Assembly (NCBI RefSeq): GCF_030384885.1
Contig: NZ_CP128614.1
DNA from: Escherichia coli
GTDB lineage: Bacteria; Pseudomonadota; Gammaproteobacteria; Enterobacterales; Enterobacteriaceae
DNA: 64,000 nucleotides
Reading direction: 5' to 3' (one strand)
Below, piece after piece: positions 1 through 29,832 of this stretch. Every line of letters begins with the position of its first letter. The first letter of the stretch is position 1. The notes below the pieces were generated by a model that ran no database searches, had not been told where the DNA came from, and worked only from the letters and a program-made list of their open reading frames with translations. The translations under genes and the position numbers were made by a program.

Positions 1-78
1 GAGGCGAGCGGCCTGAGGATCGGCTACCTGATCGATCCCGACTGCACGCTGGTGCGGCTGATCCAGAACCCCGACTGA
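1..78 (+). CDS. bleMBL: 3' end of a bleomycin-resistance (VOC/glyoxalase-fold) gene, probably ble(MBL); start lies outside the window
   Basis: Frame 1 is open from position 1 to TGA at 76-78 (…IGYLIDPDCTLVRLIQNPD*), a typical Ble-family C-terminus; trpF starts 4 bp downstream, as in blaNDM-ble-trpF arrays. Confidence 0.4.
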   Translation, partial: EASGLRIGYLIDPDCTLVRLIQNPD

Positions 79-82
79 CCGC

Positions 83-721: not shown

Positions 722-731
722 ATCGCGTCGA

Positions 732-1763: not shown

Positions 1764-1843
1764 TGGCTCAGTTTACCGGTCGGCTCTCGGCGGCCAGCCA
1801 TTGCAGGTATTCGGGCAGGCCGGACGCGGCTTCGACCGCGAGC

Positions 1844-3997: not shown

Positions 3998-4021
3998 TAG
4001 CGGGCGGCCGGAAGGTGAATG

Positions 4022-4861: not shown

Positions 4862-5202
4862 GGCGTCGGCCTCCGCAGCGACTTCCACGATGGGGATCGG
4901 GCGAGCAAAAAGGCAGCAATTATGAGCCCCATACCTACAAAGCCCCACGCATCAAGCTTTTGCCCATGAAGCAACCAGGCAATGGCTGTAATTATGACGA
5001 CGCCGAGTCCCGACCAGACTGCATAAGCAACACCGACAGGGATGGATTTCAGAACCAGAGAAAGAAAATAAAATGCGATGCCATAACCGATTATGACAAC
5101 GGCGGAAGGGGCAAGCTTAGTAAAGCCCTCGCTAGATTTTAATGCGGATGTTGCGATTACTTCGCCAACTATTGCGATAACAAGAAAAAGCCAGCCTTTC
5201 AT
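4855..5202 (-). CDS. qacEdelta1: Truncated SMR quaternary-ammonium efflux protein QacEdelta1 (3'-conserved segment)
   Basis: 115-aa [30 protein letters not shown]… abutting the sul1 start. Confidence 0.95.
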
Positions 5203-5304
5203 GATATATCTCCCAATTTGTGTAGGGCTTATTATGCACGCTTAAAAATAATAAAAGCAGACTTGACCTGATAGTTTGGCTGTGAGCAATTATGTGCTTA
5301 GTGC

Positions 5305-5364
5305 ATCTAACGCCGGAGTTAAGCCGCCGCGCGTAGCGCGGTCGGCTTGAACGAATTGTTAGAC
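5305..5364 (-). other. attC (59-base element) of the aadA2 cassette
   Basis: Imperfect inverted repeat immediately after the aadA2 stop, with core sites GTCTAAC … GTTAGAT on the cassette strand. Confidence 0.55.
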
Positions 5365-5365
5365 A

Positions 5366-6157
5366 TCATTTACCAACTGACTTGATGATCTCGCCTTTCA
5401 CAAAGCGAATAAATTCTTCCAAGTGATCTGCGCGTGAGGCCAAGTGATCTTCTTTTTGTCCCAGATAAGCTTGCTTAGCTTCAAGTAAGACGGGCTGATA
5501 CTGGGCAGGTAGGCGTTTTATTGCCCAGTCGGCAGCGACATCCTTCGGCGCGATTTTGCCGGTTATTGCGCTGTACCAAATGCGGGACAACGTAAGCACT
5601 ACATTTCGCTCATCGCCGGCCCAGTCGGGCTGCGAGTTCCATAGCTTCAAGGTTTCCCTCAGCGCCTCGAATAGATCCTGTTCAGGAACCGGGTCAAAGA
5701 ATTCCTCCGCTGCCGGACCTACCAAGGCAACGCTATGTTCTCTTGCTTTTGTAAGCAGGATAGCTAGATCAATGTCGATCATGGCTGGCTCGAAGATACC
5801 CGCAAGAATGTCATTGCGCTGCCATTCTCCAAATTGCAGCTCGCGCTTAGCCGGATAACGCCACGGGATGATGTCGTCATGCACGACAAGGGTGACTTCT
5901 ATAGCGCGGAGCGTCTCGCTCTCGCCAGGGAAAGCCGAAGCCTCCATAAGATCATTGAGCAATGCTCGCCGCGTCGTTTCATCAAGCTTTACGGCCACAG
6001 TAACCAACAAATCAATATCGCTGTATGGCTTCAGGCCGCCATCCACTGCGGAGCCGTACAAATGCACGGCCAGCAACGTTGATTCCAGATGGCGCTCAAT
6101 GACGCTTAGCACCTCTGATAGTTGGTTCGAAATTTCGATGGTCACCGCTTCCCTCAT
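5366..6157 (-). CDS. aadA2: Aminoglycoside (3'')(9) adenylyltransferase AadA2 (streptomycin/spectinomycin resistance)
   Basis: 263-aa ORF MREAVTIEISNQLSEVLSVIERHLESTLLAVHLYGSAVDGGLKPYSDIDLL…, recognised as AadA2. Confidence 0.9.
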   Translation of the reverse strand: MREAVTIEISNQLSEVLSVIERHLESTLLAVHLYGSAVDGGLKPYSDIDLLVTVAVKLDETTRRALLNDLMEASAFPGESETLRAIEVTLVVHDDIIPWRYPAKRELQFGEWQRNDILAGIFEPAMIDIDLAILLTKAREHSVALVGPAAEEFFDPVPEQDLFEALRETLKLWNSQPDWAGDERNVVLTLSRIWYSAITGKIAPKDVAADWAIKRLPAQYQPVLLEAKQAYLGQKEDHLASRADHLEEFIRFVKGEIIKSVGK

Positions 6158-6162
6158 GATGT

Positions 6163-6453
6163 CTAACGGGCGAGGTAAGCCGACCGCAGAATGCGGGTCG
6201 GCTTGACCGAAATGTTAGAACCAGAAGCCAAAACGGATAACTTGAATTTGGCGACGGGCGCTAACCGTGAAAAAACGCTGCGCCACCGAGGCGGCACAGC
6301 ACTGCAAAAACGATAGCTGCTTGCGCTTGCTACGCAAGGGCTAGAGGCCAAAAAGACTGAAAACCTGCGCAGCCCATGCAGGCGAAGCCCGGAAAAAAGG
6401 CAAAACAGGCACTGAATAACGCCTGAAAAGCTAAATGCCGTTTGAATAAACAT
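6163..6453 (-). CDS. gcuF: Gene cassette of unknown function gcuF (orfF) of the dfrA12-gcuF-aadA2 array
   Basis: 96-aa ORF sitting between dfrA12 and aadA2 in the same orientation. Confidence 0.6.
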   Translation of the reverse strand: MFIQTAFSFSGVIQCLFCLFSGLRLHGLRRFSVFLASSPCVASASSYRFCSAVPPRWRSVFSRLAPVAKFKLSVLASGSNISVKPTRILRSAYLAR

Positions 6454-6564
6454 GAGCTAAATAAAGCTGGGTTTCAGTGGTGCTAACGTTGGACGTAACG
6501 AGAGCCGGAGCGCAGCGGAGGGAACCAAAATGCGCAGCATTTTGGCGTCCCGTTGACGGAATGG

Positions 6565-7062
6565 TTAGCCGTTTCGACGCGCATAAACGGAGTGGGTGTA
6601 CGGAATTACAGCTTGAATGGTTTCGGTTGAGACAAGCTCGAATTCTGTTTCGTTGAGCATTGGGAAGAAGGCGTCACCCTCGAAGGTTTGATGTACCTCA
6701 GATAGAAACACGCCGTGGGCGTGAGGTAGTGCCAGAGTGTATATCTCAGCTCCGCCCGCGACGTAGAGTTCATTGCCGAGTTCGGATGCCAAAGCGATAG
6801 CGTGCGACAGCGTTGAAACAACTACGCAGCCAGTGGCGCGGTAGTTAGCTTGGCGTGAGATTACCAATGTGTGACGGTTCGGTAGAGGCTTGCCGATAGA
6901 CTCAAAGGTCTTTCGCCCCATGACAACGACTTTTCCCTCAGTGAGTCTGCGAAAAATCTTCTGCTCACCCGGAATTTTCCAGGGGATATTAGGACCATTG
7001 CCAATAACCCGATTGGCTCCCATCGCAGCAACGAGATAAATGCGTACTGATTCCGAGTTCAT
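6565..7062 (-). CDS. dfrA12: Trimethoprim-resistant dihydrofolate reductase DfrA12
   Basis: 165-aa ORF MNSESVRIYLVAAMGANRVIGNGPNIPWKIPGEQKIFRRLTEGKVVVMGRKTF…, recognised as DfrA12. Confidence 0.92.
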   Translation of the reverse strand: MNSESVRIYLVAAMGANRVIGNGPNIPWKIPGEQKIFRRLTEGKVVVMGRKTFESIGKPLPNRHTLVISRQANYRATGCVVVSTLSHAIALASELGNELYVAGGAEIYTLALPHAHGVFLSEVHQTFEGDAFFPMLNETEFELVSTETIQAVIPYTHSVYARRNG

Positions 7063-7063
7063 A

Positions 7064-7135
7064 TGGCTAACTTTGTTTTAGGGCGACTGCCCTGCTGCGT
7101 AACATCGTTGCTGCTCCATAACATCAAACATCGAC
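7064..7135 (-). other. attI1 recombination site / first-cassette boundary (approximate)
   Basis: …CTAAAACAAAGTTAGCC followed by the dfrA12 ATG on the cassette strand, between Pc/intI1 and the first cassette. Confidence 0.5.
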
Positions 7136-7206
7136 CCACGGCGTAACGCGCTTGCTGCTTGGATGCCCGAGGCATAGACTGTACAAAAAAACAGTCATAA
7201 CAAGCC

Positions 7207-8075
7207 ATGAAAACCGCCACTGCGCCGTTACCACCGCTGCGTTCGGTCAAGGTTCTGGACCAGTTGCGTGAGCGCATACGCTACTTGCATTACAGCTTAC
7301 CAACCGAACAGGCTTATGTCCACTGGGTTCGTGCCTTCATCCGTTTCCACGGTGTGCGTCACCCGGCAACCTTGGGCAGCAGCGAAGTCGAGGCATTTCT
7401 GTCCTGGCTGGCGAACGAGCGCAAGGTTTCGGTCTCCACGCATCGTCAGGCATTGGCGGCCTTGCTGTTCTTCTACGGCAAGGTGCTGTGCACGGATCTG
7501 CCCTGGCTTCAGGAGATCGGAAGACCTCGGCCGTCGCGGCGCTTGCCGGTGGTGCTGACCCCGGATGAAGTGGTTCGCATCCTCGGTTTTCTGGAAGGCG
7601 AGCATCGTTTGTTCGCCCAGCTTCTGTATGGAACGGGCATGCGGATCAGTGAGGGTTTGCAACTGCGGGTCAAGGATCTGGATTTCGATCACGGCACGAT
7701 CATCGTGCGGGAGGGCAAGGGCTCCAAGGATCGGGCCTTGATGTTACCCGAGAGCTTGGCACCCAGCCTGCGCGAGCAGCTGTCGCGTGCACGGGCATGG
7801 TGGCTGAAGGACCAGGCCGAGGGCCGCAGCGGCGTTGCGCTTCCCGACGCCCTTGAGCGGAAGTATCCGCGCGCCGGGCATTCCTGGCCGTGGTTCTGGG
7901 TTTTTGCGCAGCACACGCATTCGACCGATCCACGGAGCGGTGTCGTGCGTCGCCATCACATGTATGACCAGACCTTTCAGCGCGCCTTCAAACGTGCCGT
8001 AGAACAAGCAGGCATCACGAAGCCCGCCACACCGCACACCCTCCGCCACTCGTTCGCGACGGCCTTGCTCCGCAG
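7207..8075 (+). pseudogene. intI1: intI1 truncated at its 3' end by IS26
   Basis: N-terminal ~289 aa of IntI1 ([44 protein letters not shown]…) run into the IS26 inverted repeat at 8076. Confidence 0.9.
7294..7322 (-). promoter_or_regulatory. Pc: Integron cassette promoter Pc, variant PcW with TGN-extended -10
   Basis: On the cassette strand: TGGACA, 17-bp spacer, then TGG-TAAGCT; the corresponding intI1 codon 32 encodes Pro (IntI1 P32/H39). Confidence 0.75.
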
Positions 8076-8895
8076 GGCACTGTTGCAAAGTTAGCGATGA
8101 GGCAGCCTTTTGTCTTATTCAAAGGCCTTACATTTCAAAAACTCTGCTTACCAGGCGCATTTCGCCCAGGGGATCACCATAATAAAATGCTGAGGCCTGG
8201 CCTTTGCGTAGTGCACGCATCACCTCAATACCTTTGATGGTGGCGTAAGCCGTCTTCATGGATTTAAATCCCAGCGTGGCGCCGATTATCCGTTTCAGTT
8301 TGCCATGATCGCATTCAATCACGTTGTTCCGGTACTTAATCTGTCGGTGTTCAACGTCAGACGGGCACCGGCCTTCGCGTTTGAGCAGAGCAAGCGCGCG
8401 ACCATAGGCGGGCGCTTTATCCGTGTTGATGAATCGCGGGATCTGCCACTTCTTCACGTTGTTGAGGATTTTACCCAGAAACCGGTATGCAGCTTTGCTG
8501 TTACGACGGGAGGAGAGATAAAAATCGACAGTGCGGCCCCGGCTGTCGACGGCCCGGTACAGATACGCCCAGCGGCCATTGACCTTCACGTAGGTTTCAT
8601 CCATGTGCCACGGGCAAAGATCGGAAGGGTTACGCCAGTACCAGCGCAGCCGTTTTTCCATTTCAGGCGCATAACGCTGAACCCAGCGGTAAATCGTGGA
8701 GTGATCGACATTCACTCCGCGTTCAGCCAGCATCTCCTGCAGCTCACGGTAACTGATGCCGTATTTGCAGTACCAGCGTACGGCCCACAGAATGATGTCA
8801 CGCTGAAAATGCCGGCCTTTGAATGGGTTCATGTGCAGCTCCATCAGCAAAAGGGGATGATAAGTTTATCACCACCGACTATTTGCAACAGTGCC
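8076..8895 (-). mobile_element. IS26: IS26 (820 bp), wild-type transposase allele
   Basis: 14-bp terminal inverted repeats GGCACTGTTGCAAA at 8076-8089 and 8882-8895; no flanking target-site duplication. Confidence 0.95.
8128..8832 (-). CDS. tnpA26: IS26 transposase Tnp26 (Gly184)
   Basis: Translation MNPFKGRHFQRDIILWAVRWYCKYGISYRELQ… with …KRIIGATLGF…. Confidence 0.95.
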   Translation of the reverse strand: MNPFKGRHFQRDIILWAVRWYCKYGISYRELQEMLAERGVNVDHSTIYRWVQRYAPEMEKRLRWYWRNPSDLCPWHMDETYVKVNGRWAYLYRAVDSRGRTVDFYLSSRRNSKAAYRFLGKILNNVKKWQIPRFINTDKAPAYGRALALLKREGRCPSDVEHRQIKYRNNVIECDHGKLKRIIGATLGFKSMKTAYATIKGIEVMRALRKGQASAFYYGDPLGEMRLVSRVFEM

Positions 8896-9217
8896 CTCAA
8901 TAACGTGATCGAGGCCGATCACGGAAAGCTCAAGATACTGATCAAGCCGGTGCGCGGTTTCAAATCGATCCCCACGGCCTATGCCACGATCAAGGGATTC
9001 GAAGTCATGCGAGCCCTGCGCAAAGGACAGGCTCGCCCCTGGTGCCTGCAGCCCGGCATCAGGGGCGAGGTGCGCCTTGTGGAGAGAGCTTTTGGCATTG
9101 GGCCCTCGGCGCTGACGGAGGCCATGGGCATGCTCAACCACCATTTCGCAGCAGCCGCCTGATCGGCGCAGAGCGACAGCCTACCTCTGACTGCCGCCAA
9201 TCTTTGCAACAGAGCCC
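8896..9217 (+). mobile_element. IS6100: IS6100 3'-terminal fragment, truncated by IS26
   Basis: Encodes the C-terminal ~88 aa of an IS6-family transposase (…ALRKGQARPWCLQPGIRGEVRLVERAFGIGPSALTEAMGMLNHHFAAAA*) and ends with the IS6100-type inverted repeat TTTGCAACAGAGCC at 9204-9217. Confidence 0.85.
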
Positions 9218-9654
9218 GCCGTGCTAGTCTGCTCGGTGATGGTGGAGTGAAGCCAACCCGCAATCGGGTTATGAATCTGCATCGCGATTCGCAATCAGCT
9301 GTCTCTTGAGCATGTCGAACTCCTGCGATGTTATCTCGCCGTGCTCGTGCTGCTACACCAACTTGTCCAACTCATCCGCCACACCGCTCCCCACCACCTG
9401 CGATGGCCAGGTTGTTTGCTGGGCGCATTGGCGGAGTATCGTCTCGACCCGGGACACCCACACCGGCACAACCTTACGGGAGTGATTCACTGTCAAAGAA
9501 TCGGCCCGGTGCTCTGACGCAAGTATCGGGATGGTCACCATTTGTAAGCCGTAGACCTGAGTGGTGATCAAGACTTCGATACCACCGACCGTACCGGTAC
9601 TAATCGACGACGGTCGTGTTCGTCGCCTGCCGCAGGGACTCTGCACACCTCCGT

Positions 9655-10239
9655 TTACGCATGTGCCTGGAGGAGTTGGAAATCGTCGTGTTCGGGAAAC
9701 ATTAAACACAGGATGGCAGCGATCTGAGCCAGCACATGATCAGCTAGCTCACCATCCGGATCGACGGCCCACTGCATCGTCGCGCCAGCGATGACCGAGT
9801 GCAGGAGCAACTCAGCTGCCGCAGGAGCACCTGGGGGCAGTCGCTTGCGGATCCCCTCCACCACCGCGCGGTTCCGCTGGATCGCAAGCGTGCGTAGCTC
9901 CGGCACCTGGAGCTCGTACCAGGAGATGAGATAGTTCACCGAGAAGTCGTTGCGAGTGTTCATGCTCCGAACGAGCACCTGCAAAAATTCCCAGAGCCCT
10001 TGCGGCCCTGCGCCTATCGGTATCGCATTCAGGTAATGCCGCACCTGCTCGACGCCGCGCTCCATCATCCTCACCAGCAGCGTATCGCGGTTGGTGAAGC
10101 GCTGGATTAACGCTGCGCGGGAGAGCCCCACCTCCTTTGCTACTCCGCTGAGCGTGAACTCTATGGGACCGCAACGCTTCAGCACTACGGTGGCGGCCTC
10201 GAGTACCTCGTCATCGGACTTGAGCTTGGGGCGGGGCAT
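9655..10239 (-). CDS. mphR(A): TetR-family repressor MphR(A)
   Basis: 194-aa TetR-like ORF directly downstream of mrx and mph(A) in the canonical order. Confidence 0.88.
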   Translation of the reverse strand: MPRPKLKSDDEVLEAATVVLKRCGPIEFTLSGVAKEVGLSRAALIQRFTNRDTLLVRMMERGVEQVRHYLNAIPIGAGPQGLWEFLQVLVRSMNTRNDFSVNYLISWYELQVPELRTLAIQRNRAVVEGIRKRLPPGAPAAAELLLHSVIAGATMQWAVDPDGELADHVLAQIAAILCLMFPEHDDFQLLQAHA

Positions 10240-11477
10240 CAGTGTTCACCTTCTGTATGGGTTGGGGCGGAGGCTGTGGCTGCCGCCGCCATTGTAGCAA
10301 ATTGAAGACGGAGCGAGAGTAGAGCCACGAGCCCCGCAAACACGGCCGATACAACGAGGCCAGGGAGCGGACCAGCAAGGTCGACAAACGCGCCGGCCGC
10401 AAGCATAACCATGGGCGAGGCTGACAGCATCACCGCCGAGACCGTGCCGAGTACCCGGCCGAGAAGTTCTGGCGGCGTGCGGTTGTAGATGGCAGCGTTG
10501 AGAATGGGAGAGACTGAGCCGGTCAGCAGTCCCACGAGCGCGCCCAACAACATCAGCACCGGCACGCCTGGCAACTGTGAAAGCAGAAGCGAGCCCACCG
10601 CAGAGCCACAAAATGCCACCGCCAGCCAGTTCTGCGCTGATATCCGGGCGCCGACCGACGCATGAATGGCAATGCCAAGGAGACCACCAGCCCCCATCAT
10701 TGAGGAGAACAGCCCGAGCTCTGCTACTTGGCGTCCTGCATCTACAAACAGCGCAGGCATGATGACGCTGCCGTTGGCGCCAACGATGCCCACGAAGATC
10801 ATCACTATACCAAAGAGAGGGCGCAGCAGGGGTTCGCTCCAGAGAAAAGCGACGCCGGCGCGCATGGAGAGAGTCGCCGTCGTGGTCATCGTCCGAGCGG
10901 CACGCGCGGGAAGCACCCACGCGCCGAGCAGACCTGCAAGGACGGAGCAGAACGCCGTCAGCCCGAGCGTTGGCGCAGCGCCAAGCAGGCCGATTGCGGC
11001 CCCCCCAAGGGCCGGGCCACCTAGAATCGCGACGTTCCCGATCACCGCTTTCAGTGACGAGACGCGCTCAACGGAGAGCCCGGCGACGTGGCCGAGTTTG
11101 GGCAGCTCACTGTCCTGCGCGGCCATACCGGGTGCGTCGAACGCAGCACCGAGCACCACGCAAGCGATCAGCCCAGTGTTCGAGAGGGCGCCAACGGCAT
11201 CGAGCAGTGGGATGCTCGCCATGGCCACGCCGCCCACCACACCCGAGATCAATGCGACGGGCGCGCGCCCGAACCGATCGACGAGGCCACCACCAACCCA
11301 CGCGCCGATGATGGTCGCGATGACGCTGCTAGCGGCCGTGGCGCCCGCCCAGGCCGCGCTCTTTGTATGAGACAGGACGAACCATGGAAGCGCGAGGGCC
11401 GCCACCGCGTTGCCGATCCGGAAGAGAAAGGTCGCCGCGAACAGCGTCGCGAGCGGGCTATATCGACGTTCGCTCAT
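10239..11477 (-). CDS. mrx: MFS-type membrane protein Mrx
   Basis: 412-aa multi-transmembrane ORF between mph(A) and mphR(A). Confidence 0.88.
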   Translation of the reverse strand: MSERRYSPLATLFAATFLFRIGNAVAALALPWFVLSHTKSAAWAGATAASSVIATIIGAWVGGGLVDRFGRAPVALISGVVGGVAMASIPLLDAVGALSNTGLIACVVLGAAFDAPGMAAQDSELPKLGHVAGLSVERVSSLKAVIGNVAILGGPALGGAAIGLLGAAPTLGLTAFCSVLAGLLGAWVLPARAARTMTTTATLSMRAGVAFLWSEPLLRPLFGIVMIFVGIVGANGSVIMPALFVDAGRQVAELGLFSSMMGAGGLLGIAIHASVGARISAQNWLAVAFCGSAVGSLLLSQLPGVPVLMLLGALVGLLTGSVSPILNAAIYNRTPPELLGRVLGTVSAVMLSASPMVMLAAGAFVDLAGPLPGLVVSAVFAGLVALLSLRLQFATMAAAATASAPTHTEGEH

Positions 11478-12379
11478 TCCGCTGCGGCGAGCTGCGCCTT
11501 CGCCGCAGCGAGGTACTCTTCGTTACCCGAGTCGAGGGCGAAGAGTGCGTAGGTGACCGCCCCGAACGCAAGGCGCTCCGCGATGTGGTGGGCGAGCCGC
11601 GGCCACACCCGGCCACCGGCCGCTTCATACGTGAGGAGGAGCTTCGCGAGCCCCTCTTCACCAAAGACCATAAGGTGCGCGGCCATGTCGATGGCAGGGT
11701 CATCAACGCGGGCCTCGCTCCAGTCGATCATCCCGCTGACGCGCTCCGTGTTGTCGATGAGCACATGGCCCACGTAGAGATCGCCATGCACCACCACGGA
11801 GAAATCTGGCCACGACGAATCGTCGTCGAGCCAGCGCTGCCACCGGTGGAGGCGCTTGTCGTTCACCACGAACTCGCGTCGGACGCGGTCAACGTCGTCG
11901 GCCACCTTCTGACGGGCCTGCGTCGGTGTACGGATGAGCATCCCCGCATCCACGGCGGCGGAAATGGGGACGGCATGCAGGGCGGCGAGCGCGGTCGCGA
12001 AGCTCTCCGCGAAGACCTCCGAGTCCTGCGGCACGACCCAGTCGGGCGTGGACGAACCAGGCTGGATGACCATCGCAGTCGAGTCTTCGAGCATGGGATA
12101 GGCAACGAGCTCGGCGTTGGCCACGCGCCAGTCCGGCACCGCGAACGGCAGGCGATTCTTGAGCATTGCCAGCACCCGCGCCTCTGGTTCGACCTTCGCG
12201 CTTACCTCGGCTCGGCGCGGGATGCGCAGCACCCACCGACGTCCATCGTCGACGGTGGCGATCACGATCCTATAGTCGAGCCCAAGCTCATTGACAGTCA
12301 GCGGGCCATGGAGCTTGAGCCCATGTCGGGCTGCAAGTGCGTACAGTTGGGAGGTATCGGCGGTCGTGACTACGGTCAT
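11474..12379 (-). CDS. mph(A): Macrolide 2'-phosphotransferase Mph(A)
   Basis: 301-aa ORF MTVVTTADTSQLYALAARHGLKLHGPLTVNELGLDYRIVIATVDDGRRWVLRIPRR…, recognised as Mph(A). Confidence 0.95.
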   Translation of the reverse strand: MTVVTTADTSQLYALAARHGLKLHGPLTVNELGLDYRIVIATVDDGRRWVLRIPRRAEVSAKVEPEARVLAMLKNRLPFAVPDWRVANAELVAYPMLEDSTAMVIQPGSSTPDWVVPQDSEVFAESFATALAALHAVPISAAVDAGMLIRTPTQARQKVADDVDRVRREFVVNDKRLHRWQRWLDDDSSWPDFSVVVHGDLYVGHVLIDNTERVSGMIDWSEARVDDPAIDMAAHLMVFGEEGLAKLLLTYEAAGGRVWPRLAHHIAERLAFGAVTYALFALDSGNEEYLAAAKAQLAAAE

Positions 12380-12448
12380 GATTCACTCCTGAGGGCTTGA
12401 CGGGTTTAGCCACCTAAATGTAACAGTCACGTCGGTTATATTCAATCC

Positions 12449-13268
12449 GGCACTGTTGCAAAGTTAGCGATGAGGCAGCCTTTTGTCTTATTCAAAGGCC
12501 TTACATTTCAAAAACTCTGCTTACCAGGCGCATTTCGCCCAGGGGATCACCATAATAAAATGCTGAGGCCTGGCCTTTGCGTAGTGCACGCATCACCTCA
12601 ATACCTTTGATGGTGGCGTAAGCCGTCTTCATGGATTTAAATCCCAGCGTGGCGTTGATTATCCGTTTCAGTTTGCCATGATCGCATTCAATCACGTTGT
12701 TCCGGTACTTAATCTGTCGGTGTTCAACGTCAGACGGGCACCGGCCTTCGCGTTTGAGCAGAGCAAGCGCGCGACCATAGGCGGGCGCTTTATCCGTGTT
12801 GATGAATCGCGGGATCTGCCACTTCTTCACGTTGTTGAGGATTTTACCCAGAAACCGGTATGCAGCTTTGCTGTTACGACGGGAGGAGAGATAAAAATCG
12901 ACAGTGCGGCCCCGGCTGTCGACGGCCCGGTACAGATACGCCCAGCGGCCATTGACCTTCACGTAGGTTTCATCCATGTGCCACGGGCAAAGATCGGAAG
13001 GGTTACGCCAGTACCAGCGCAGCCGTTTTTCCATTTCAGGCGCATAACGCTGAACCCAGCGGTAAATCGTGGAGTGATCGACATTCACTCCGCGTTCAGC
13101 CAGCATCTCCTGCAGCTCACGGTAACTGATGCCGTATTTGCAGTACCAGCGTACGGCCCACAGAATGATGTCACGCTGAAAATGCCGGCCTTTGAATGGG
13201 TTCATGTGCAGCTCCATCAGCAAAAGGGGATGATAAGTTTATCACCACCGACTATTTGCAACAGTGCC
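12449..13268 (-). mobile_element. IS26: IS26 variant copy (820 bp) with Tnp26 G184N
   Basis: Same terminal repeats at 12449-12462 and 13255-13268; differs from the copy at 8076-8895 by GG to AA in codon 184. Confidence 0.93.
12501..13205 (-). CDS. tnpA26: IS26 transposase, G184N allele
   Basis: Translation identical to the first copy except …KRIINATLGF…. Confidence 0.93.
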   Translation of the reverse strand: MNPFKGRHFQRDIILWAVRWYCKYGISYRELQEMLAERGVNVDHSTIYRWVQRYAPEMEKRLRWYWRNPSDLCPWHMDETYVKVNGRWAYLYRAVDSRGRTVDFYLSSRRNSKAAYRFLGKILNNVKKWQIPRFINTDKAPAYGRALALLKREGRCPSDVEHRQIKYRNNVIECDHGKLKRIINATLGFKSMKTAYATIKGIEVMRALRKGQASAFYYGDPLGEMRLVSRVFEM

Positions 13269-13412
13269 ACGCAAAGACGTAATGAGCAGTGTATCCCCTG
13301 CCACAATACCCTCTTCAGGGATGCTGTCAGTGGACGTCCAGTACTGACCCGCCAGCAAAGAATGAAATCGCTCTAAACGGTCAATGCTATTTTTGCTGAC
13401 CAGGTCACCCAT
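13269..13412 (-). pseudogene. 5' fragment of a backbone gene cut by the IS26 right end
   Basis: Minus-strand ATG at 13410-13412 opens a frame (MGDLVSKNSIDRLERFHSLLAGQYWTSTDSIPEEG…) that runs straight into the IS26 terminal repeat at 13268. Confidence 0.35.
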
Positions 13413-13662
13413 ATACTTTTCCTTCCAGATTCGTGTGTTAGGTGAATCATACCAGATTGCCCTTGCCGTCTAATAACGCAGAAAACTGTGAATCCAAAAT
13501 TCCTTAAATTCAAACCTGTCCAATATAAAAGATGGCTCTTTTTCTTATCCAGTGTTAAGCGATAATGCTCAATTTTATTTCATTATTGTCAGAATCAAAA
13601 TAATCTGAAAATAAAAAAGGCTTCAGAATTGAAGCCTCTATATTATACAACGTGAATGTATT

Positions 13663-14019
13663 TTATTTATCTTTCACCGGGTTCATTTCCCAGTATCTTT
13701 CACGTACGTTTTCTTGGCAATGGTCCGCTCGCTCCGGCGTGTCCCTTTTACGAGTAGCAAATGCTTCAATTACGGCATTCAAGTCTTTTTCTTTGATTTT
13801 AGATCCAACAGGCAAGTTTTCTTCAAACTCAGTCCTTACCAGTTCTTTCGTTTTTTTATAATCGGTTTCACTTTGGATTTCAGGTTTTAAACAAATATCG
13901 GCAACCATCACATCTGATTTGCCCGGGATCGGTTTTTTCCCGTTTTCAGATGCAAGGACCGCAGAGGAGGTAAAGGCGACAGACAGAGTTGCACATAACA
14001 GAAGGTATTTTAATTTCAT
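13663..14019 (-). CDS. Hypothetical secreted protein (signal peptide)
   Basis: 118-aa ORF with N-terminal signal sequence MKLKYLLLCATLSVAFTSSAVLA. Confidence 0.5.
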   Translation of the reverse strand: MKLKYLLLCATLSVAFTSSAVLASENGKKPIPGKSDVMVADICLKPEIQSETDYKKTKELVRTEFEENLPVGSKIKEKDLNAVIEAFATRKRDTPERADHCQENVRERYWEMNPVKDK

Positions 14020-14168
14020 GACTCACTCCATGATTATCAATGATGGTTGCTCAGACACATCATTTATACCATGCCTGTCACCGAATACGAGATCCCCATA
14101 TTTTGGCTTTAAATATTATCCAATAGGGTTTCATACACCTGGCTTCTGAAAGCAAGGTTCAAGGAGCT

Positions 14169-14786
14169 TCAGGGGGAAATCAGATTGTTGTCGACCCAGT
14201 ACTTGTGCAAACCTACCACCCAATTCCTGGAAATGGACGAAAGTTCATGCGCCAGTTCACGACAGCATTCAGGCGTAAAAATACGTATGGGTCCTGAAGT
14301 ACCGATATCAACAGACATGATAAACTCCAGAATGTTGCCATGGCATAGGTTGTTTCTCAGCCTGACAATTTCTGCTTCAGGTGTTCTCCCGGCTGCTACC
14401 TTAACCAACATATCCTGCTCGGCTGGAAATGAAAGTAATTCTACCGGCACCCCTTCCTGCTTGGCCTTTCTCAGTAAGGCATTACTCATTACGGAGATAC
14501 CCTCCAAGTCCACCAGCTCAGGAGCTGCATGCTGATCGTTAACTGTTGGTTTCAGCATCAGCGACTTCAACGTAACCATGAGTGATGTTTCAATCCCGTT
14601 CAGGAAGCTCGTACAGGCCGGTATCCATAGTTCGTGATGCAACGCCTCGGTTGCTTGTTTAAAGAACCAGTCAATCACGGGGACAGTGTGATAATCATAA
14701 TAGTGATTTATCTCGCTGAATCTTGACATATAAGCATCGTACTCAGCCTGGTCTTCAGGAGATAAAAAATTTGGTGGGAGGGGCAT
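14169..14786 (-). CDS. Hypothetical protein
   Basis: 205-aa ORF, no recognised motif. Confidence 0.45.
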   Translation of the reverse strand: MPLPPNFLSPEDQAEYDAYMSRFSEINHYYDYHTVPVIDWFFKQATEALHHELWIPACTSFLNGIETSLMVTLKSLMLKPTVNDQHAAPELVDLEGISVMSNALLRKAKQEGVPVELLSFPAEQDMLVKVAAGRTPEAEIVRLRNNLCHGNILEFIMSVDIGTSGPIRIFTPECCRELAHELSSISRNWVVGLHKYWVDNNLISP

Positions 14787-18230: not shown

Positions 18231-18289
18231 AAGCAGACGGCGGGAAGAGAATGTTCAAAAGTGACTTTTGGACACGCACATAAACGTGG

Positions 18290-21248: not shown

Positions 21249-21251
21249 ATT

Positions 21252-22825: not shown

Positions 22826-25800
22826 CTACCTTTTATTTTCATTAAGCCACTGATCCGCTTTATCGACACGTGACTGGTAAGGCTCATTTGTGTTGCTCAG
22901 CTCTGACTTCATGTACTGAATGAATTCATCTGCTTTCTGAGGCCCAAAGCGTGGGTCATCCGTCAATTGCTGCCGGATAGCCCTTTCAGAGTTCTGCGCT
23001 GCATTCGCATAAGTCGAAACGCCGTCGCTGCTAATACTCTGATACCGGTCACTTACAGCTGCGACGCCATCAGACATCTGCATGTGATTAAGGACTTTAC
23101 CCTGGAGAGAATCAGGCATATTTGCAGGGTTAGAGGCATCATTTGCTATCGATGTCTGGGTTTGAAGGATGCCCGCTCCCGTAAGCATCTCATTTACCGG
23201 TTTCGCCCCAACGCTGGTTAGCGTATCCGAAACAAATTGCTGGCCCCCGAGTAGCGCACCAGAAATCGCGCCCCGCTCAGTGTTGGCCTCTATCTTTTCC
23301 CCAACCAAGCGATCTGTGACGGTCTGAGTGCGGTTACCAACGAGACCACCGCCCGACCCACCCTCTCCTAGGTTTGCCCGTACGACTGACTCAAGTGAAC
23401 CATCAGCTCTGTTATGAGTGTTGAAACTGCTATGGATGCTCTGAACGTCATTCATACTCCAGTTAACGTTATAGTTACCCAGTTCATTAAGGATCTTCTG
23501 GGTATCCGCTTTGAGCTGCTCTCTTTCGGCACCGGTAGCCATGGTGCTGGCACCATAGGTAAAGACAGCTTGCTGTGCCAATTCAGCTCGCTTATCGTCC
23601 CGGCTTAAGTTCGGGTTGTTGGCAACACGACTAAAGTAGTTATCAGTGTTATTAGATAAGCCACGAACTTGACCGCTCTGATACATACTGTTCAAAGCAG
23701 TGGCTCGTTGATCCATTCCATCACCAACCACCCGACCTCCGGTAGCCTTTTCCAGATCGTTAAATGTGCCTTCTGCATTTCTGACATCCTGACCTGAATT
23801 GACGACTTTCTCTACACCCTGATTATTCAGTACAGGGCCATTCGTTTTGAGAGAATTGAGCACATTCCTTTCTTCATCAGAATAAGTGCGGCCCACGTTG
23901 TTGTTATGTATTCCCTGAATATCGCCTTTGCCCGCGTTATCAAGGTTATACGGAGTAAAGCCAGCTTCACTTTTTCCAGGGACACGCTGAGTCGCGTCCT
24001 GAGCGTTGGAGGAAAGACCGAGTTTAGCCTGCGAATCAACACTTCCACCCAGTTCCCCTACGCGTGACGCACTCATCACGCCAGACGTATTTACGCTGTC
24101 AGGAGTTCTATCCTGTGCCTGAGTGATAGTATTAATTCCTGACCCTTCGCCTGAAATTCTGTCGAGCTGATTGGTGATAGGTAGCAGCTGCTGTGCATTA
24201 CCACCGAAGTCGGAAACCAGACTTTTAAGCAGGCTGGAGGTTTCACGGAGATCCTGTTTATTACTTTCGGCCGTCTCTCCCCGGGCGGTATCAATCGCAA
24301 TTTTTTGCTCACTGAAATCTCGTGTTGCAGCCACAAGCGCGTCAGTACGTTGAAGCTGCGAACCAAGCTGATTACTGGCCTTGAAGGTATCGTTATAGGA
24401 GTTGAATTTCTCCATAAACGCATTCTCATCCAGCCCATTCTTACGAGCAAAATTCCTTACATCATCATCACTGAAGTTTTTGTTGCGAATAGAATCGGAG
24501 AACCTGTCCAGGTTAATGCTTTGTTTAGAATCAAGGCTCATTCCACTATTGGAGCTGGCGTTAGTCGATACCGATGTAGAAATGTTTTGCGCCATCGTCT
24601 GTGTCGCCTGGTTCATTTTCGACGATGCTTCTTTAAACGCATTAGTATTGGATATCTGATCGCTGCTTACCTGAGACGCCGCTTTACTGAACTGGTCAGT
24701 CAAAGCAGAATCCTGGCTAAGCTGATTCGTGATTGCTTTTGAAAGGTCATTTGAAAGCGAGTCACTGCCTGTATTGGTCTTAGATGCGCCGCTACTCAAT
24801 TGCCCTGCTACAGCTGCTTTCAGCCCGGCTCCGTTGCCAGTTCCAGCACCTCCATTAAGCCCAGCGTTTAGAATAACATTTGAAGCAATGCTGGCCATCT
24901 GAGACGCACTCACCCCATGTTTCGTTGCAATACCTTCTGCTACAGAGGCACCAATCTTATCCGAGATCTGCTTCATTGTTTGCAGGTTGGTTGAGAACTG
25001 CTGGCTCGACTGTCCTGACCTTCCAATTTCACTCATCTGACTGTAACCAGCCTGGAATGAATTACTTGCCGCACTCATAACTGATGAGGTTACAGCTGAT
25101 CCTTGCCCCTGGCTGTTAGCGATACTTGAACCAGCATTCCACATTCCAAGACGGAAATTACTTGAATCAACTGCGCCGCCATCGCTGTATCCCTGACCGG
25201 TACTGGTCAAGGCGGTTCGTGTCACGTCACCAAATGAAGATTTACCGCTGTTAGGGCCATCCCATACTTTGGGCGTTACATGACCAGTATCCACCGGCGC
25301 ATCGGGGGTCACTCCCTTAACCGCATTCATCATCGGGTGAATCGACTGTGTCATCAGGAATAATGTGAGTACCGGAATCAGAGCATAAAGCGCGGAAGCA
25401 ACAGACAGGTATGAACTGTATGTTTCCGCAAGCCCTGGGAGCCCCATCCACGTGACGGCATTATTCTGGCTGTTGAGGGTGCTCCAGGTATCCAGATCGG
25501 CCGTCGCGACTTTCTTCACATACGCGTTGACCATTACTGCCGTAAGCGGCCACATATTCACGAAGAGAATAAGTTGCAAATATTTCGCCGCAGCGGCAAC
25601 ACCATTACCACCTAACGCCAGCAGCATAAGCAAAGCAAATGGAGCAACCATGTAAGCAAACATCTCAAGGAATGCGATTGCTGCTCCAGACAGTTGTAAC
25701 CACAACTGGCCCTGTGAAGCCATTGTGTTGGTTCGCTTCAGAGAAGCCTCAAACAACTGCATATCGGAAGCCAGACTGAGTGGGGTCTTATATTTGCTTG

Positions 25801-26779
25801 CGCCATTTCTGAGCTCATTCATTATGAACAGGTTCAGGGTGGCGTCATACGAACCAATAGCCTTACCGTACATACCATTTGCTGACGCCATAACATCAGT
25901 AAAACTTGCGCCGGTAGGTGCACCATTTGCTTCGTCTGGAGTAAGGATGCCGTTTGTCTGTCCTATAAGGGAAATAGTCTGGCGAGCTTCAGCTGTACTG
26001 GTAACCTGTTTCACAGTTGACCAGACCTCATCACACGTACCAGATTTTGAACCGTTAGCGCCAACAATACTGGCAGAGGCATTCTTCAGTGCGCCTTTCA
26101 TCGCCTGATTAATCCGGTCCATGCTATCTGCCAGATTAGCTGAGAAAATATCGTTAAAAATAGTTTCTTTACCGGCAATATTTGCGCTTGAGTTTTGGGT
26201 AGCCTTCAGGCAGTTGTATGCAAGAGACTGAACGGTAGCACATACGTTCATTGGCCCTAGCCCGCTGGCCGGTTCAGGAAATGCAGAACAGTAGCCCTGG
26301 CTATCGCCGCCCCATTGCAAAAACTTCACGAATCGGATCATCGGACCGAGGGTGATGTCATCGTCCAGAGTTGTTGCAGACAGGTCCACCGGAGAAAGCG
26401 GATCAAACGCAGTTTTATAATCCTTCAGCAAACCCTGGCTTAAGTTAGTGGTGACGGTGGCCATCGCAGCAATAAAAATTGGAATTCCGTCGACGTTTCT
26501 GACCTCTCCCGACTTTACAGATTCAATAGTTACATCCACTCGAACCATTGCCATCATGAAAAGGATCAACCCCAAAAACCAGGAGAAAAACGGTAATTCA
26601 TTTTTGGTCGGAGCCTGAAGCCATAGCCACGTTTTATAGAATAGGCTCACACCTGCTACAACGGCGGCCGTGGTCAGGAACTCTTTTACACCAGTATATT
26701 GAGAAAAGATTAGGGCAATACCGGTAAAAGCCGACCAGACAAAATCAATATCACCCAGGGTATATATGTTGTAATCCAT
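22826..26779 (-). CDS. trhG: F-type T4SS TraG/TrhG-like mating-pair stabilisation protein
   Basis: 1317-aa ORF with an N-terminal polytopic membrane domain and long Ser/Gly/Asn-rich C-terminal region; last gene of the trhF-trhH-trhG block. Confidence 0.75.
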   Translation of the reverse strand: MDYNIYTLGDIDFVWSAFTGIALIFSQYTGVKEFLTTAAVVAGVSLFYKTWLWLQAPTKNELPFFSWFLGLILFMMAMVRVDVTIESVKSGEVRNVDGIPIFIAAMATVTTNLSQGLLKDYKTAFDPLSPVDLSATTLDDDITLGPMIRFVKFLQWGGDSQGYCSAFPEPASGLGPMNVCATVQSLAYNCLKATQNSSANIAGKETIFNDIFSANLADSMDRINQAMKGALKNASASIVGANGSKSGTCDEVWSTVKQVTSTAEARQTISLIGQTNGILTPDEANGAPTGASFTDVMASANGMYGKAIGSYDATLNLFIMNELRNGASKYKTPLSLASDMQLFEASLKRTNTMASQGQLWLQLSGAAIAFLEMFAYMVAPFALLMLLALGGNGVAAAAKYLQLILFVNMWPLTAVMVNAYVKKVATADLDTWSTLNSQNNAVTWMGLPGLAETYSSYLSVASALYALIPVLTLFLMTQSIHPMMNAVKGVTPDAPVDTGHVTPKVWDGPNSGKSSFGDVTRTALTSTGQGYSDGGAVDSSNFRLGMWNAGSSIANSQGQGSAVTSSVMSAASNSFQAGYSQMSEIGRSGQSSQQFSTNLQTMKQISDKIGASVAEGIATKHGVSASQMASIASNVILNAGLNGGAGTGNGAGLKAAVAGQLSSGASKTNTGSDSLSNDLSKAITNQLSQDSALTDQFSKAASQVSSDQISNTNAFKEASSKMNQATQTMAQNISTSVSTNASSNSGMSLDSKQSINLDRFSDSIRNKNFSDDDVRNFARKNGLDENAFMEKFNSYNDTFKASNQLGSQLQRTDALVAATRDFSEQKIAIDTARGETAESNKQDLRETSSLLKSLVSDFGGNAQQLLPITNQLDRISGEGSGINTITQAQDRTPDSVNTSGVMSASRVGELGGSVDSQAKLGLSSNAQDATQRVPGKSEAGFTPYNLDNAGKGDIQGIHNNNVGRTYSDEERNVLNSLKTNGPVLNNQGVEKVVNSGQDVRNAEGTFNDLEKATGGRVVGDGMDQRATALNSMYQSGQVRGLSNNTDNYFSRVANNPNLSRDDKRAELAQQAVFTYGASTMATGAEREQLKADTQKILNELGNYNVNWSMNDVQSIHSSFNTHNRADGSLESVVRANLGEGGSGGGLVGNRTQTVTDRLVGEKIEANTERGAISGALLGGQQFVSDTLTSVGAKPVNEMLTGAGILQTQTSIANDASNPANMPDSLQGKVLNHMQMSDGVAAVSDRYQSISSDGVSTYANAAQNSERAIRQQLTDDPRFGPQKADEFIQYMKSELSNTNEPYQSRVDKADQWLNENKR

Positions 26780-26787
26780 GTCAGACC

Positions 26788-28266
26788 TCAGTTACGTGTG
26801 CCACGAATACTTTCAGTGAAAGCCTTCCGTTGCAGGCGACGGTTATCCCAGGTTGAAATGACGTCCGAGCTGGTACCGACCTGGCTGTGCGATAGCTCAT
26901 AGGCGGCTTTAACCTGTTTTGAGAGATTGTCTGTTAATCGGTTGAGATCATCCCTTTTACCCGACAGCGACTCACTCGGTATGCTCATGGTTGAAATTTT
27001 GGCCTCAACCTGGCGCAACATGTTGATTACGAGGCTCGTCGCAGCAATAGTGCTTATGTCCTGAATGTATGCGTACCCTTCCGGTGCTTCGAATGTTTGC
27101 AAAGAGTCGATAATGGTCGGGATGCCGATATAGGAGATAATGCGTAATTCATCATCTGAAACACGAACGTCGTTGATGATTTTTTTCTGTACGTTTAAAA
27201 GAAGATCAGAAATGGTATCCTTCAATCCCTTAAAACCACCGTCATTAACTTCTGACATGACAAGGCACTGAGCCTTTCGTGGGGATGATGGATCTGGTGC
27301 CGGAGAACACTTGAGCATTTTAATTGATCCGCCAGCTGGTGGCCCCATGATGTAATCCGTGACAGTCATGGTAGACGGGCGGACTTCCATTCCCGCTTTT
27401 TCGCCTTTGCTATCCCAGTTGATAATGACAGTACCCACGAGAGACATAAGTTGTTCTGCCAATTTATAACCGGATAACTCCGTTACCCCTCCGATGTTCA
27501 TTGTTCCCTTATCAATATCCATGAACGACATATAGAAGAGGTTACCACTGAATTTTTCAGCGAACTCTTCGGGATCCTTTGCTTTAACCTGAGAAGTGAC
27601 AGCTTCAGGTGACTTTGTCATCGATGAGCCAAAATCAGGAATGAGACCATTAATCGATCCCAGAATTGAGGCTGGTCCAGAGCTAACTGAGTTAGCGAAC
27701 TGGCTTGGCGTACCCACGTTTTCAGAAAGGAAAGAGTAAGTTGCATTGCATGAATCTTTCGCAAATTTATTTAGCGCTTGCAGTTTGTTTTGGATGTCAT
27801 TAATCGTTGCAGCACAGTCAGCACAAATAGCTGAAACAGCAACGTTAAAAGCATAGATAGCCGCACCCTGGGCAATACCACGGGCCACCTGCACAAGCTG
27901 GTCCCCGTTGATCATGCTGAAGGACCCAAGAAAAACGTCAATACCATTACAACCGACAGAAGCTTTTGGAAACGACATGGAAACAAGGTTGGTATTAACG
28001 TTTGTTGTTCGGTAAGACATTGACCCGCCAACTATGCCTGTACGGGTTGCTGTGGAAAAGGTGGCCGGGCTGGTAGACGTCATCATGCCATTGAAAATGT
28101 TACGCATTGCGTTGTCTGCATTTGCAGTCGGGGCTAAAATTGCAGCACAAACAGAAAGAGACAAAAGTAACTTTTTGAAGTTGAAAACGGCATTACTGCG
28201 CATAAGTGCCTCCAAAACTGCCGCCAGCATTGAGATAATTGACCGGATCGGCCGTAGGCATGTCAT
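26788..28266 (-). CDS. trhH: F-type T4SS TraH/TrhH-like protein
   Basis: 492-aa ORF with a signal peptide; the true start is probably the internal Met near 28203. Confidence 0.75.
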   Translation of the reverse strand: MTCLRPIRSIISMLAAVLEALMRSNAVFNFKKLLLSLSVCAAILAPTANADNAMRNIFNGMMTSTSPATFSTATRTGIVGGSMSYRTTNVNTNLVSMSFPKASVGCNGIDVFLGSFSMINGDQLVQVARGIAQGAAIYAFNVAVSAICADCAATINDIQNKLQALNKFAKDSCNATYSFLSENVGTPSQFANSVSSGPASILGSINGLIPDFGSSMTKSPEAVTSQVKAKDPEEFAEKFSGNLFYMSFMDIDKGTMNIGGVTELSGYKLAEQLMSLVGTVIINWDSKGEKAGMEVRPSTMTVTDYIMGPPAGGSIKMLKCSPAPDPSSPRKAQCLVMSEVNDGGFKGLKDTISDLLLNVQKKIINDVRVSDDELRIISYIGIPTIIDSLQTFEAPEGYAYIQDISTIAATSLVINMLRQVEAKISTMSIPSESLSGKRDDLNRLTDNLSKQVKAAYELSHSQVGTSSDVISTWDNRRLQRKAFTESIRGTRN

Positions 28267-29239
28267 AGCCTTCGAGTTTTTGGTCCATTATTTTTTGAAG
28301 TAAGAATGGGTCTGATTCCATTTCGGATTTATTAACGGTAATAACGCCATCATCACCGATGGTATATTGCCTTTTAATATCTAGAGTTGACTGAAACGAA
28401 GCGTCATCGATCAGATTCATGCCCTTCGCGGCAAGTATAATAGTGTTCTTTAATTCATCAGCGGAGATCATGCCTTCACTAATGCGCTGAGCTGATGTCC
28501 CATCCTTTGAAACCAGGAAAATTGTAGGTACCTCTCGAATTTTAAATTGATCAATAATTTGTGCATTGGGGATGTTAAAATCCTGAAAAAGGCCATTATG
28601 CAATGGCCTTCCATCCATACTGATTGGAAGAATATCTACCGAATAATAGTTCTGCATAAATTGAAGTATTTGGCTCTCTTCGTGGCAAAACTGGCAAGTA
28701 CTCTGGAAAAAGAAAAATAAACCTGACTTAGTAAAGATATCTTTCATTACCGTTTGCTGATTTTTTTCAACAACAGTGCGGTGAGCATCCAGTGCCACCT
28801 TTTCCACTGGTTGCCTGCGTTTTTCAGACATCATCGGGTTTTTAAGAAAATAATCTTTTGATTTGTCAGAAAAACGCGTACTGATATCCAGCATTAACCT
28901 TTGCGCCGTGTAATAACGTGATAGATTTTCTGCGGTAGGGTTATCCATTGCCTGCGTTAACAGTCGAGGCATATTCTCTTTTAGCCATTTTGAATTTAAA
29001 TCTACCTTTTCCTCTTTTGAAGGCGAGCTAGCAGCACCGGTTGGTGGCAAAACCTTTTCTTCTTCAGCTTCGCTTTTTTTAGCAGGATCGTCATACCAGA
29101 AGAAACCCTTCTTATAAGCCTGGCCTGATACAAAGGGCGTATCTTTTATTAGGGGTTGCTCAGGGCTGGCGTGGGCACCAGTAATTACCAAAGACATAAG
29201 CAAAACCATCTTTGAAGGCGCTAATGCAATACGAGTCAT
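28193..29239 (-). CDS. trhF: F-type T4SS TraF/TrbB-family thioredoxin-fold protein (TrhF-like)
   Basis: 348-aa ORF with signal peptide and a CxxC motif (CQFC) in a thioredoxin-like C-terminal domain. Confidence 0.7.
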   Translation of the reverse strand: MTRIALAPSKMVLLMSLVITGAHASPEQPLIKDTPFVSGQAYKKGFFWYDDPAKKSEAEEEKVLPPTGAASSPSKEEKVDLNSKWLKENMPRLLTQAMDNPTAENLSRYYTAQRLMLDISTRFSDKSKDYFLKNPMMSEKRRQPVEKVALDAHRTVVEKNQQTVMKDIFTKSGLFFFFQSTCQFCHEESQILQFMQNYYSVDILPISMDGRPLHNGLFQDFNIPNAQIIDQFKIREVPTIFLVSKDGTSAQRISEGMISADELKNTIILAAKGMNLIDDASFQSTLDIKRQYTIGDDGVITVNKSEMESDPFLLQKIMDQKLEGYDMPTADPVNYLNAGGSFGGTYAQ

Positions 29240-29832
29240 AGACCGTTCTCCTTTTCTGATGCGGTTATGATGGCATACAAAAAAAAGGTTAGAGCTCGTA
29301 TAGCATGGTCGTTTTTATGTTGAAAAGGACGGAAAAGGAGTGCTGACTAAGAAGATAGTCTCGGTGATGGAAAGATCATCCATCTTGCACATTGTGAAAA
29401 ATCCGGTGTAACAAAAACATGGTTTTATCGAATATCTAAAAGCAAATATTGCTTTGAAAACAGGTGTATTAAGAGCTGAAAAAAATCATCACCAGTAACG
29501 CTGTTTCTATATTTCAAAGAAGGAATAGCTAAGGATCAAAGAAGCGAACTTAGGCAAGAATATAAAATATATTAATTGAAAGCGATTAAGAAGTCGTCAT
29601 GCATAGAAGGTTTTAGAGAACCTAAGTAGTTTTACGTTTTCAACAGAAAAAAAGGTGAACATTTTTTGGAACGAAGAAAGACTGTATAAAGAAAAATCAA
29701 ATTATATCTTTACTTGTCAAGAGTTAATATTTAAGTTGTAACTAATATTTGATTGTAAAGCAAACAACAGAATTTGACTTAAGTCAATATTTAGATTCAG
29801 ACAAGGCAAGTTTCGCGATATCTTTTTTAAAT

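Follow-up and report, generated by a model that had tools for sequence, protein, structure and literature searches.

What separates the activator genes from the pilus genes in the transfer region of an IncHI2 plasmid, and what does the DNA between them do? The question is raised by a 593-bp spacer lying between trhY and trhF at positions 29240-29832 of a 64-kb stretch of an IncHI2 resistance plasmid, which we call the window and to which coordinates refer unless another sequence is named. Plasmids of the IncHI2 group are major vehicles for mcr-1 and for extended-spectrum beta-lactamase and carbapenemase genes, and it is through TrhR and TrhY that their transfer is switched on. We find that the spacer has two parts. 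Conservation is confined to the ~130 bp that adjoin trhF, and the other ~460 bp are a fast-changing AT-rich filler. Our reading is that the conserved part contains an activator-dependent promoter of the F operon (P_F), and that the rest is a passive AT-rich separator holding the R and F operons apart; we would put its probability at about three in four.

The interval coincides exactly with the intergenic gap, and the genes on either side are read from the minus strand. Its upstream edge is the stop codon of trhY (29833-30345), the second gene of the R operon. Downstream lies trhF (28193-29239), the first gene of the F operon, which encodes a TraF-family pilus-assembly protein with a thioredoxin fold (Pfam TraF PF13728, E 2.6e-51). 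The spacer has a GC content of 0.320, where that of the window is 0.479, and this is the lowest anywhere in the 64 kb; it is 27-31% across ~430 bp, and down to 26-27% in the part near trhY. The original prediction, of a non-coding AT-rich spacer of ~590 bp, is thus correct in its coordinates, in its composition and in the lack of any conserved open reading frame (ORF). In an IncHI2-type plasmid, this window constitutes the Tra1 transfer region. The spacer sequence is matched in 960 PLSDB plasmids at 97.8-100% identity, all of which are predicted by MOB-suite to be conjugative, and those examined carry the IncHI2A replicon.

The order trhR-trhY-spacer-trhF-trhH-trhG recurs in R27, the prototype of IncHI1, with a gap of 611 bp rather than 593 and a spacer that is also AT-rich (GC 35% vs 32% in IncHI2). 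The TrhR, TrhY and TrhF proteins of R27 are 77%, 85% and 84% identical to those of the window. Tra1 of R27 comprises three operons, R (trhR, trhY), F (trhF, trhH, trhG) and H (PMC7366339). Activation of the F, H, AC and Z operons needs TrhR and TrhY together, and is counteracted by HtdA; TrhR, TrhY and HtdA are routinely assayed with a chromosomal F-promoter::lacZ fusion, which pBAD-trhRY induces at both 25 and 37 °C (PMC7366339). Array values at 25/37 °C are 397/200 for trhY and 129/20 for trhF, and at 25 °C an htdA mutation raises trhF 27-fold and trhY 2-fold (PMC7366339). Such values are in keeping with a distinct promoter located between trhY and trhF. The arrays contain R0124 and R0126, and not R0125 (PMC7366339). 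We take the separate operons, the dependence on TrhR/TrhY and the antagonism by HtdA from this R27 literature; the anatomy, the conservation, the promoter signature that the operons share and the predicted FlhC fold come from our own analysis.

It had been proposed from the letters of the DNA that the spacer splits the transfer block after the two activator-like genes and may hold the promoter of trhF-trhH-trhG. Both proposals agree with R27, where the R and F operons are distinct, trhF is regulated independently of trhY and the F promoter serves as a reporter, and the second agrees in addition with the promoter-like character of the conserved 130 bp described below. The spacer is the IncHI2 counterpart of the R27 R/F operon boundary, and the expected orthologue of the promoter region already used as the R27 reporter. 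It is real but ordinary, and largely understood already. What the present work adds is a placement of the F promoter within ~60 bp, and a candidate operator common to four tra operons.

The division of the spacer into two parts emerges from comparisons at increasing distance. We used p13E573-HI2 as a second IncHI2 lineage, and all 13 differences between the lineages in the spacer lie within 29391-29726, with 0/13 in 29240-29370. The latter interval is our proximal conserved segment (predicted P_F and 5' leader, minus strand), delimited by multi-clade alignments as well as by this lack of lineage differences. The distal segment, 29371-29832, diverges by 2.8 per 100 bp, which is ~4 times faster than trhF, trhY and trhR (0.6-0.8). 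The proximal 131 bp are 59.7% identical to R27, with a z score of 7.4 against shuffled sequences, and this homology of ~130 bp adjacent to trhF includes an identical TATGCCATCATA core and Shine-Dalgarno (SD) sequence. The distal ~460 bp have no detectable similarity to those of R27 (z -0.3, the same as shuffled sequence), and the flanking genes are 74-76% identical at the DNA level. Alignment to a Photorhabdus plasmid is limited to the final ~90 bp of the spacer, even though TrhY there is 89% identical. The proximal segment is the sole part recovered by blastn in Photorhabdus, in the Escherichia coli clade represented by locus L022 and in R27; no distal homology was detected with the Photorhabdus or L022 relatives.

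Within the proximal block, we aligned IncHI2, Photorhabdus, IncHI1 (R27 and K. oxytoca/Pantoea), the L022 clade (TrhY 69% identical) and Klebsiella plasmids (TrhY 31-37%). A core is kept across all of these clades ~27 nt before the ATG, with a run of T followed by TATG-SS-AT-S-ATA, and this T-run and TATGSSATSATA core are present even in the Klebsiella plasmids where TrhY is at its most divergent. T-15, G-14, A-11, T-10, A-8 and T-7 are invariant, while positions -13, -12 and -9 vary to give the hexamers CATCAT, CATAAT and GATGAT. We read this pattern of invariant positions as marking an extended -10 element, which in the window is predicted to be TG-C-CATCAT on the minus strand at 29267-29275, with TG at 29275-29274, then C, then CATCAT at 29272-29267. 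It is preceded by a T8 tract (29279-29286, minus strand) that comprises 5-9 T in all clades with five invariant columns, and the pattern is matched in 5 loci. The predicted transcription start is an A at 29260, 7 nt after the -10, which would give a leader of ~21 nt; by eye, an A occupies this position in three clades (IncHI2, R27 and Klebsiella). The SD sequence of trhF, GGAG at 29248-29251 on the same strand, lies 8 nt before the ATG at 29239 and its AGG.G columns are invariant. A consensus scan of the spacer found no -35 consensus and no sigma-70 -35/-10 pair. The lack of a -35 is what would be expected of an activator-dependent promoter. Taken together, the sequence comparisons support the prediction that the proximal 130 bp hold the F-operon promoter. 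We also considered TATGCCATCATA as a repeated operator, and rejected this as it is unique to P_F.

A candidate site for the activator lies upstream of the core. This is the proposed TrhR/TrhY box, AAAAACGACCATGCTATACGAG at 29295-29316 on the minus strand, about -56 to -35 from the predicted start. For comparison, F promoters were anchored on the extended -10, and H (mobI) promoters on their own -10, which is TATAGT in 4/8 plasmids. F and H promoters then share four elements in all eight plasmids: an A-run (-60 to -53), ACC(C) (-52 to -46), (G)TTAn (-43 to -39) and GA(A/G) (-37 to -35). The gap between box and -10 is 22 nt in the F, H, Z and AC promoters. When a position weight matrix (PWM) is trained on H promoters alone, the predicted F site comes out top of ~700-1450 positions, both strands included, in R27, K. 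oxytoca, Kp09 and Kp10; in L022 it is top with a shift of 1 nt, and the third Klebsiella plasmid has it seventh. With a matrix from F and H promoters, the Z promoter, on which it was not trained, is the best match in 45 kb of R27 Tra2, scoring 21.0 against a shuffled maximum of 16.1, and this R27 box is followed by 22 nt and then TAGTAT. The same matrix places the Z site of R478 at rank 1/684 and the AC site of R27 at 1/1342. It finds no comparable, correctly spaced site in the R and AN control regions, which are not activated by TrhR/TrhY. In the window, the predicted H-operon promoter occupies 31835-31884 on the plus strand, with the box TCAAAAATCTTCTGTTCGTGAA at 31835-31856, 22 nt, and TATAGT at 31879-31884, which is 21 nt before the mobI ATG at 31906. 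This H box is the top match of the window (19.5, compared with a shuffled maximum of 18.1).

The box is common to exactly the four operons reported to depend on TrhR/TrhY, and for this reason we propose it, as a candidate, to be the TrhR/TrhY operator. We found no description of such a box in the accessible literature, which did not include the primary R27 papers (e.g. Gibert 2014). A larger claim is that the box serves as the TrhR/TrhY operator across the IncHI clades, and that 460 bp free of sequence information are kept as an H-NS/Rho insulator uncoupling the pilus operon from the activator genes; we offer this tentatively, at somewhat less than even odds. If it were true, the TrhR/TrhY regulon of major resistance plasmids would be predictable from sequence alone, with the proposed shared operator providing a rule for recognizing the transfer-regulon genes of a plasmid. 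Registers obtained by motif expectation maximization were only partly right for F. In R27 (L011), the RefSeq start of the first gene of the Z operon, a metallophosphoesterase, seems to be 24 nt early (20184 vs 20208). The annotated ATG comes 2 nt after the end of the predicted Z -10, TAGTAT (in the region 20132-20181 of L011); an SD sequence goes with the second ATG, from which the protein begins MASEHVQTIDL, compared with MAAEHVQTIDL at the start of the R478 protein.

The nature of the activator bears on this arrangement. From modelling, TrhY is predicted to have the FlhC fold and to be a subunit of a heteromeric TrhR/TrhY activator. The earlier label of trhY as an FlhC-like gene is therefore supported at the level of the predicted fold. 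There is no Pfam FlhC match to TrhY, and sequence tests of homology between TrhY and FlhC gave no clear match, one FlhC query sequence being approximate; a scan of genome contigs for relatives of TrhY found 2 loci only. The fold strengthens an analogy with FlhDC, with AcaCD of IncA/C plasmids and with SetCD of SXT/R391 elements. Like TrhR/TrhY these are heteromeric, with one subunit of FlhC fold (predicted in the case of TrhY), and the activator is encoded close to the transfer origin, oriT. Their class II targets, like P_F, are without a -35, and several tra operons, the one ahead of traF included, have a conserved box at or just upstream of the -35 position. The IncHI system differs from AcaCD and SetCD in adding the anti-activator HtdA and thermoregulation, and its box is unrelated in sequence to the AcaCD box GCCCnAAWnGGGC. 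No match to the latter within 2 mismatches occurs in 29240-29832, and the whole window has 25 such matches where 33 are expected by chance. The regions upstream of traF in distant plasmids of Aeromonas, Citrobacter and Providencia are organized in other ways, and no shared motif was found in the Aeromonas upstream sequence.

These elements suggest the following mechanism. RNA polymerase would use the extended -10 at 29275-29267 without a usable -35, which would make P_F dependent on TrhR/TrhY. The activator would bind the box at 29316-29295 beside the -35 position in class II style, and the transcript would start near 29260, with a short leader carrying the GGAG ribosome-binding site. The anti-activator HtdA would lower the activation of P_F, and temperature would act mainly upstream, through H-NS repression of trhR. 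The distal ~460 bp would be largely passive in holding the two operons apart, with Rho acting on the distal transcript and H-NS on the AT-rich tract together stopping read-through from trhY. The exact start site, the role of the box as operator and the insulation by Rho and H-NS are the steps that we infer.

The potential for Rho-dependent termination can be seen in the composition of the tract. Transcribed from the minus strand, the spacer is T-rich with more C than G, at a C/G ratio of 1.53 that rises locally to 2.4, and no intrinsic terminator (a GC-rich hairpin followed by a T-run) was found on this strand between 28900 and 30400. An untranslated, T-rich transcript with C in excess of G and no hairpin provides conditions favouring a Rho-dependent stop to trhY read-through. 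Composition and comparisons further mark the distal segment as unconstrained sequence that attracts insertion sequences (IS). ISKpn26 has inserted at 29529-29535 in plasmid p4281_EMB, and IS1, with a duplicated target, at 29712-29721 in pCFSAN086836. An IS4-like element is present in the Photorhabdus spacer (L023 ~3900-5480), ~200 bp upstream of trhF. The three insertions are independent, all lie at least 200 bp upstream of trhF and all spare the proximal block; the distal part tolerates insertions of 0.8-1.6 kb. A perfect 14-bp palindrome TTGACTTAAGTCAA, specific to IncHI2 and unique in the window, lies at 29774-29787, 46 bp beyond the trhY stop, within a 106-bp stretch that has no differences between the IncHI2 lineages. 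By eye, nothing like it was seen at the aligned position of R27. Three AAATATT repeats flank the palindrome on the minus strand, at 29792, 29750 and 29732 (by eye).

A number of points weigh against a proximal activator-dependent promoter combined with a passive separator. A purely passive filler does not explain why unrelated sequences should keep similar lengths, the spacer, which stays AT-rich, being 593, 611 and ~614 bp in the IncHI1 and IncHI2 relatives (746 bp in L022). The F box of IncHI2 is the weakest copy. Compared with CGTTAC-CGAG in R27, the IncHI2 sequence GCTATACGAG has a 1-nt insertion and differing bases, and in fixed register the H-only PWM places it at rank 117/1144. It is the fifth-best match in the 64-kb window, with a score of 12.8, from a matrix that included this same site. 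The AC site of R478 ranks 9/2254 with the matrix from F and H. The registers of the boxes were set after their similarity had been seen, and the orthologous sequences compared are not independent of one another. The start site of P_F in IncHI2 is placed from the position of the -10, whose hexamer is non-consensus at -12. Lastly, arrays of the htdA mutant of R27 show trhY up 3.9-fold at 37 °C while trhF is not raised and stays off (PMC7366339), so that a direct block at P_F at this temperature is possible.

The 37 °C result leads to the first alternative, in which the distal tract is mainly a silencing platform for H-NS (or for Hha or the plasmid-encoded Sfh). Filaments would nucleate on it at 37 °C and occlude P_F, making the F operon temperature-sensitive. 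The tract is the lowest-GC stretch of the window, three IS elements have landed in it, and H-NS and Hha are known to repress R27 conjugation at 37 °C. It resembles horizontally acquired AT tracts silenced by H-NS in its local AT excess, and in lying on a plasmid that is regulated by H-NS/Hha and has its own H-NS paralogue. It differs from them in having no high-affinity motif: no TCGATAAATT site within 1 mismatch is present in the spacer, and the count in the window is that of chance. The published R27 model places H-NS silencing, which acts at 37 °C, at the trhR promoter and not at trhF, and the F promoter responds to pBAD-trhRY at 25 and 37 °C alike. In addition, the AT-rich part is unconserved and accepts insertions of the size given above. 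H-NS binding to the distal tract is plausible, but we do not favour it as the main mechanism, and consider a silencing platform rather unlikely.

The distal part might instead be the remnant of a decayed gene. Klebsiella plasmids of IncHI1B-like type have an additional conserved ORF of 180 aa, X, between the trhY-like gene and traF (L008 5530-6072, L009 5509-6042, L010 5536-6078; 543 bp in L008 and L010). The order trhR-trhY-X-spacer-traF is found in all four loci examined (L008, L009, L010 and L013), with a spacer of 365-415 bp after X. X belongs to no Pfam or NCBIfam family and is not HtdA-like, and searches of the window, R27 and R478 gave no homologue. Given this synteny in four loci, and a distal segment of 460 bp that is close to X in size, a gene X lost from IncHI1 and IncHI2 could have left the distal tract behind. 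We rejected the spacer as a remnant of X on the basis of tblastn, in which the spacers of IncHI2, R27, K. oxytoca and E. coli gave only chance-level matches (E > 0.2). X is also lacking from the E. coli L022 clade, where the gap is 746 bp. Decay of X is thus a distinctly unlikely origin for the tract.

A further possibility is control at the level of RNA, where segments present only upstream in trhY read-through transcripts would pair with the ribosome-binding site of trhF, so that only transcripts from P_F are translated. The region of 201 nt around the trhF start folds with z -2.6 against shuffled sequences, and in its minimum-free-energy structure the U-run pairs with AAAAGGAG. The segment 29352-29332 (CUCCUUUUC) can pair with the SD region at 29256-29236, and 29306-29295 with codons 2-5 of trhF; an analogous pair in R27, CGTTA..CGAG with CTCG..TAACG, is apparent by eye. 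Yet there are 13 inverted repeats of like quality in an 800-bp AT-rich stretch, the two pairings are mutually exclusive, and the partners differ between clades with one possible covariation event. Moreover, such a device would be superfluous if Rho halts read-through. We regard it as very unlikely.

It had also been suggested that the spacer may hold a small unannotated gene, and a search for small ORFs and small RNAs was put forward as the check. That a gene for a small protein or small RNA is concealed here is hardly credible. In its favour, an intergenic gap of 593 bp is long, there are several ORFs of 20-30 aa and the 201-nt fold at the trhF start might be taken as a sign of structure. Against it, R27 has none of these ORFs, its distal part being unalignable; in the sister lineage of IncHI2 the 25-aa ORF has lost its ATG (29391 A>G) and the 21-aa ORF has its start deleted and is frameshifted; a search of 28500-30800 with the Rfam 15 covariance models gave no match at E<=1 inside the spacer; there is no terminator; folding of the whole spacer is unremarkable (z -1.3 for the minus strand, -0.7 for the plus); the distal part is unconserved; and none of the records examined has an annotated gene in the spacer. 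A 'trhX' gene in the gap was not confirmed, nothing relevant being found in the literature searched. Most of the AT-rich tract carries no sequence information, and we advise against searching it for hidden genes.

Other genes of the region are placed as follows. The first gene of the R operon, trhR, lies on the minus strand at 30347-31147 and encodes an unassigned protein of 266 aa. The F operon continues after trhF with trhH (26788-28203) and then trhG (22826-26779), both on the minus strand. The longest ORF of trhH begins at 28266 (492 aa), whereas RefSeq places the start at 28203, giving an overlap of 11 nt with the stop of trhF. On the plus strand mobI and a MOBH relaxase gene diverge from 31906. 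When the window was compared with pMCR_WCHEC050613 (NZ_CP019214.3) from ~14.6 kb to the 50-kb point there were only 3 mismatches; the first ~14.5 kb (1-14567) differ from that plasmid, and constitute a variable resistance/IS26 region.

A second sequence element came to light in these comparisons. A 13-bp palindrome, AAAAGTNACTTTT, is spread over the IncHI backbone far above chance. Perfect copies in the window are at 18257, 19158, 28163, 30782, 31223, 36569, 48250 and 48376, and copies with one mismatch at 21251, 31708, 35131, 38299, 43201 and 63103. Within 2 mismatches there are 19 sites in the window, 8 of them perfect, where 4.6 are expected. The corresponding values are 33 against 7.0 for R478 (L007), and 21 against 3.4 and 30 against 5.4 for R27 (L006 and L011). 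The palindrome is found also in the distant Klebsiella clade (L008-L010, L013), and the flanking positions carry no information. Over the annotated span of the backbone, 8/13 sites are in the 14% of the DNA that is intergenic, and copies in coding sequence occur in all three frames. It is essentially absent from 1-14567. Certain positions are kept between IncHI1 and IncHI2, for example at 353 nt within trhR, at ~28 nt within trhH and, upstream of trhR, at ~76 nt; the perfect copy at 28163-28175 is just inside trhH. In the X-carrying Klebsiella plasmids trhR and trhY are separated by a gap of ~190 bp, with one copy inside it. As a TrhR/TrhY box at P_F the palindrome was rejected, since there is no copy in any trhY-trhF spacer. 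There is no mention of it in the literature searched. By analogy, such a distribution recalls global plasmid regulators, KorB for instance, whose operators are likewise dispersed. In R27 (L011 38839-38979), AAAAGGCACTTTT occurs three times at a spacing of 43 bp, with a degenerate fourth copy, beside a gene for a RepB-family initiator; these copies look like iterons, and resemble AAAAGTNACTTTT.

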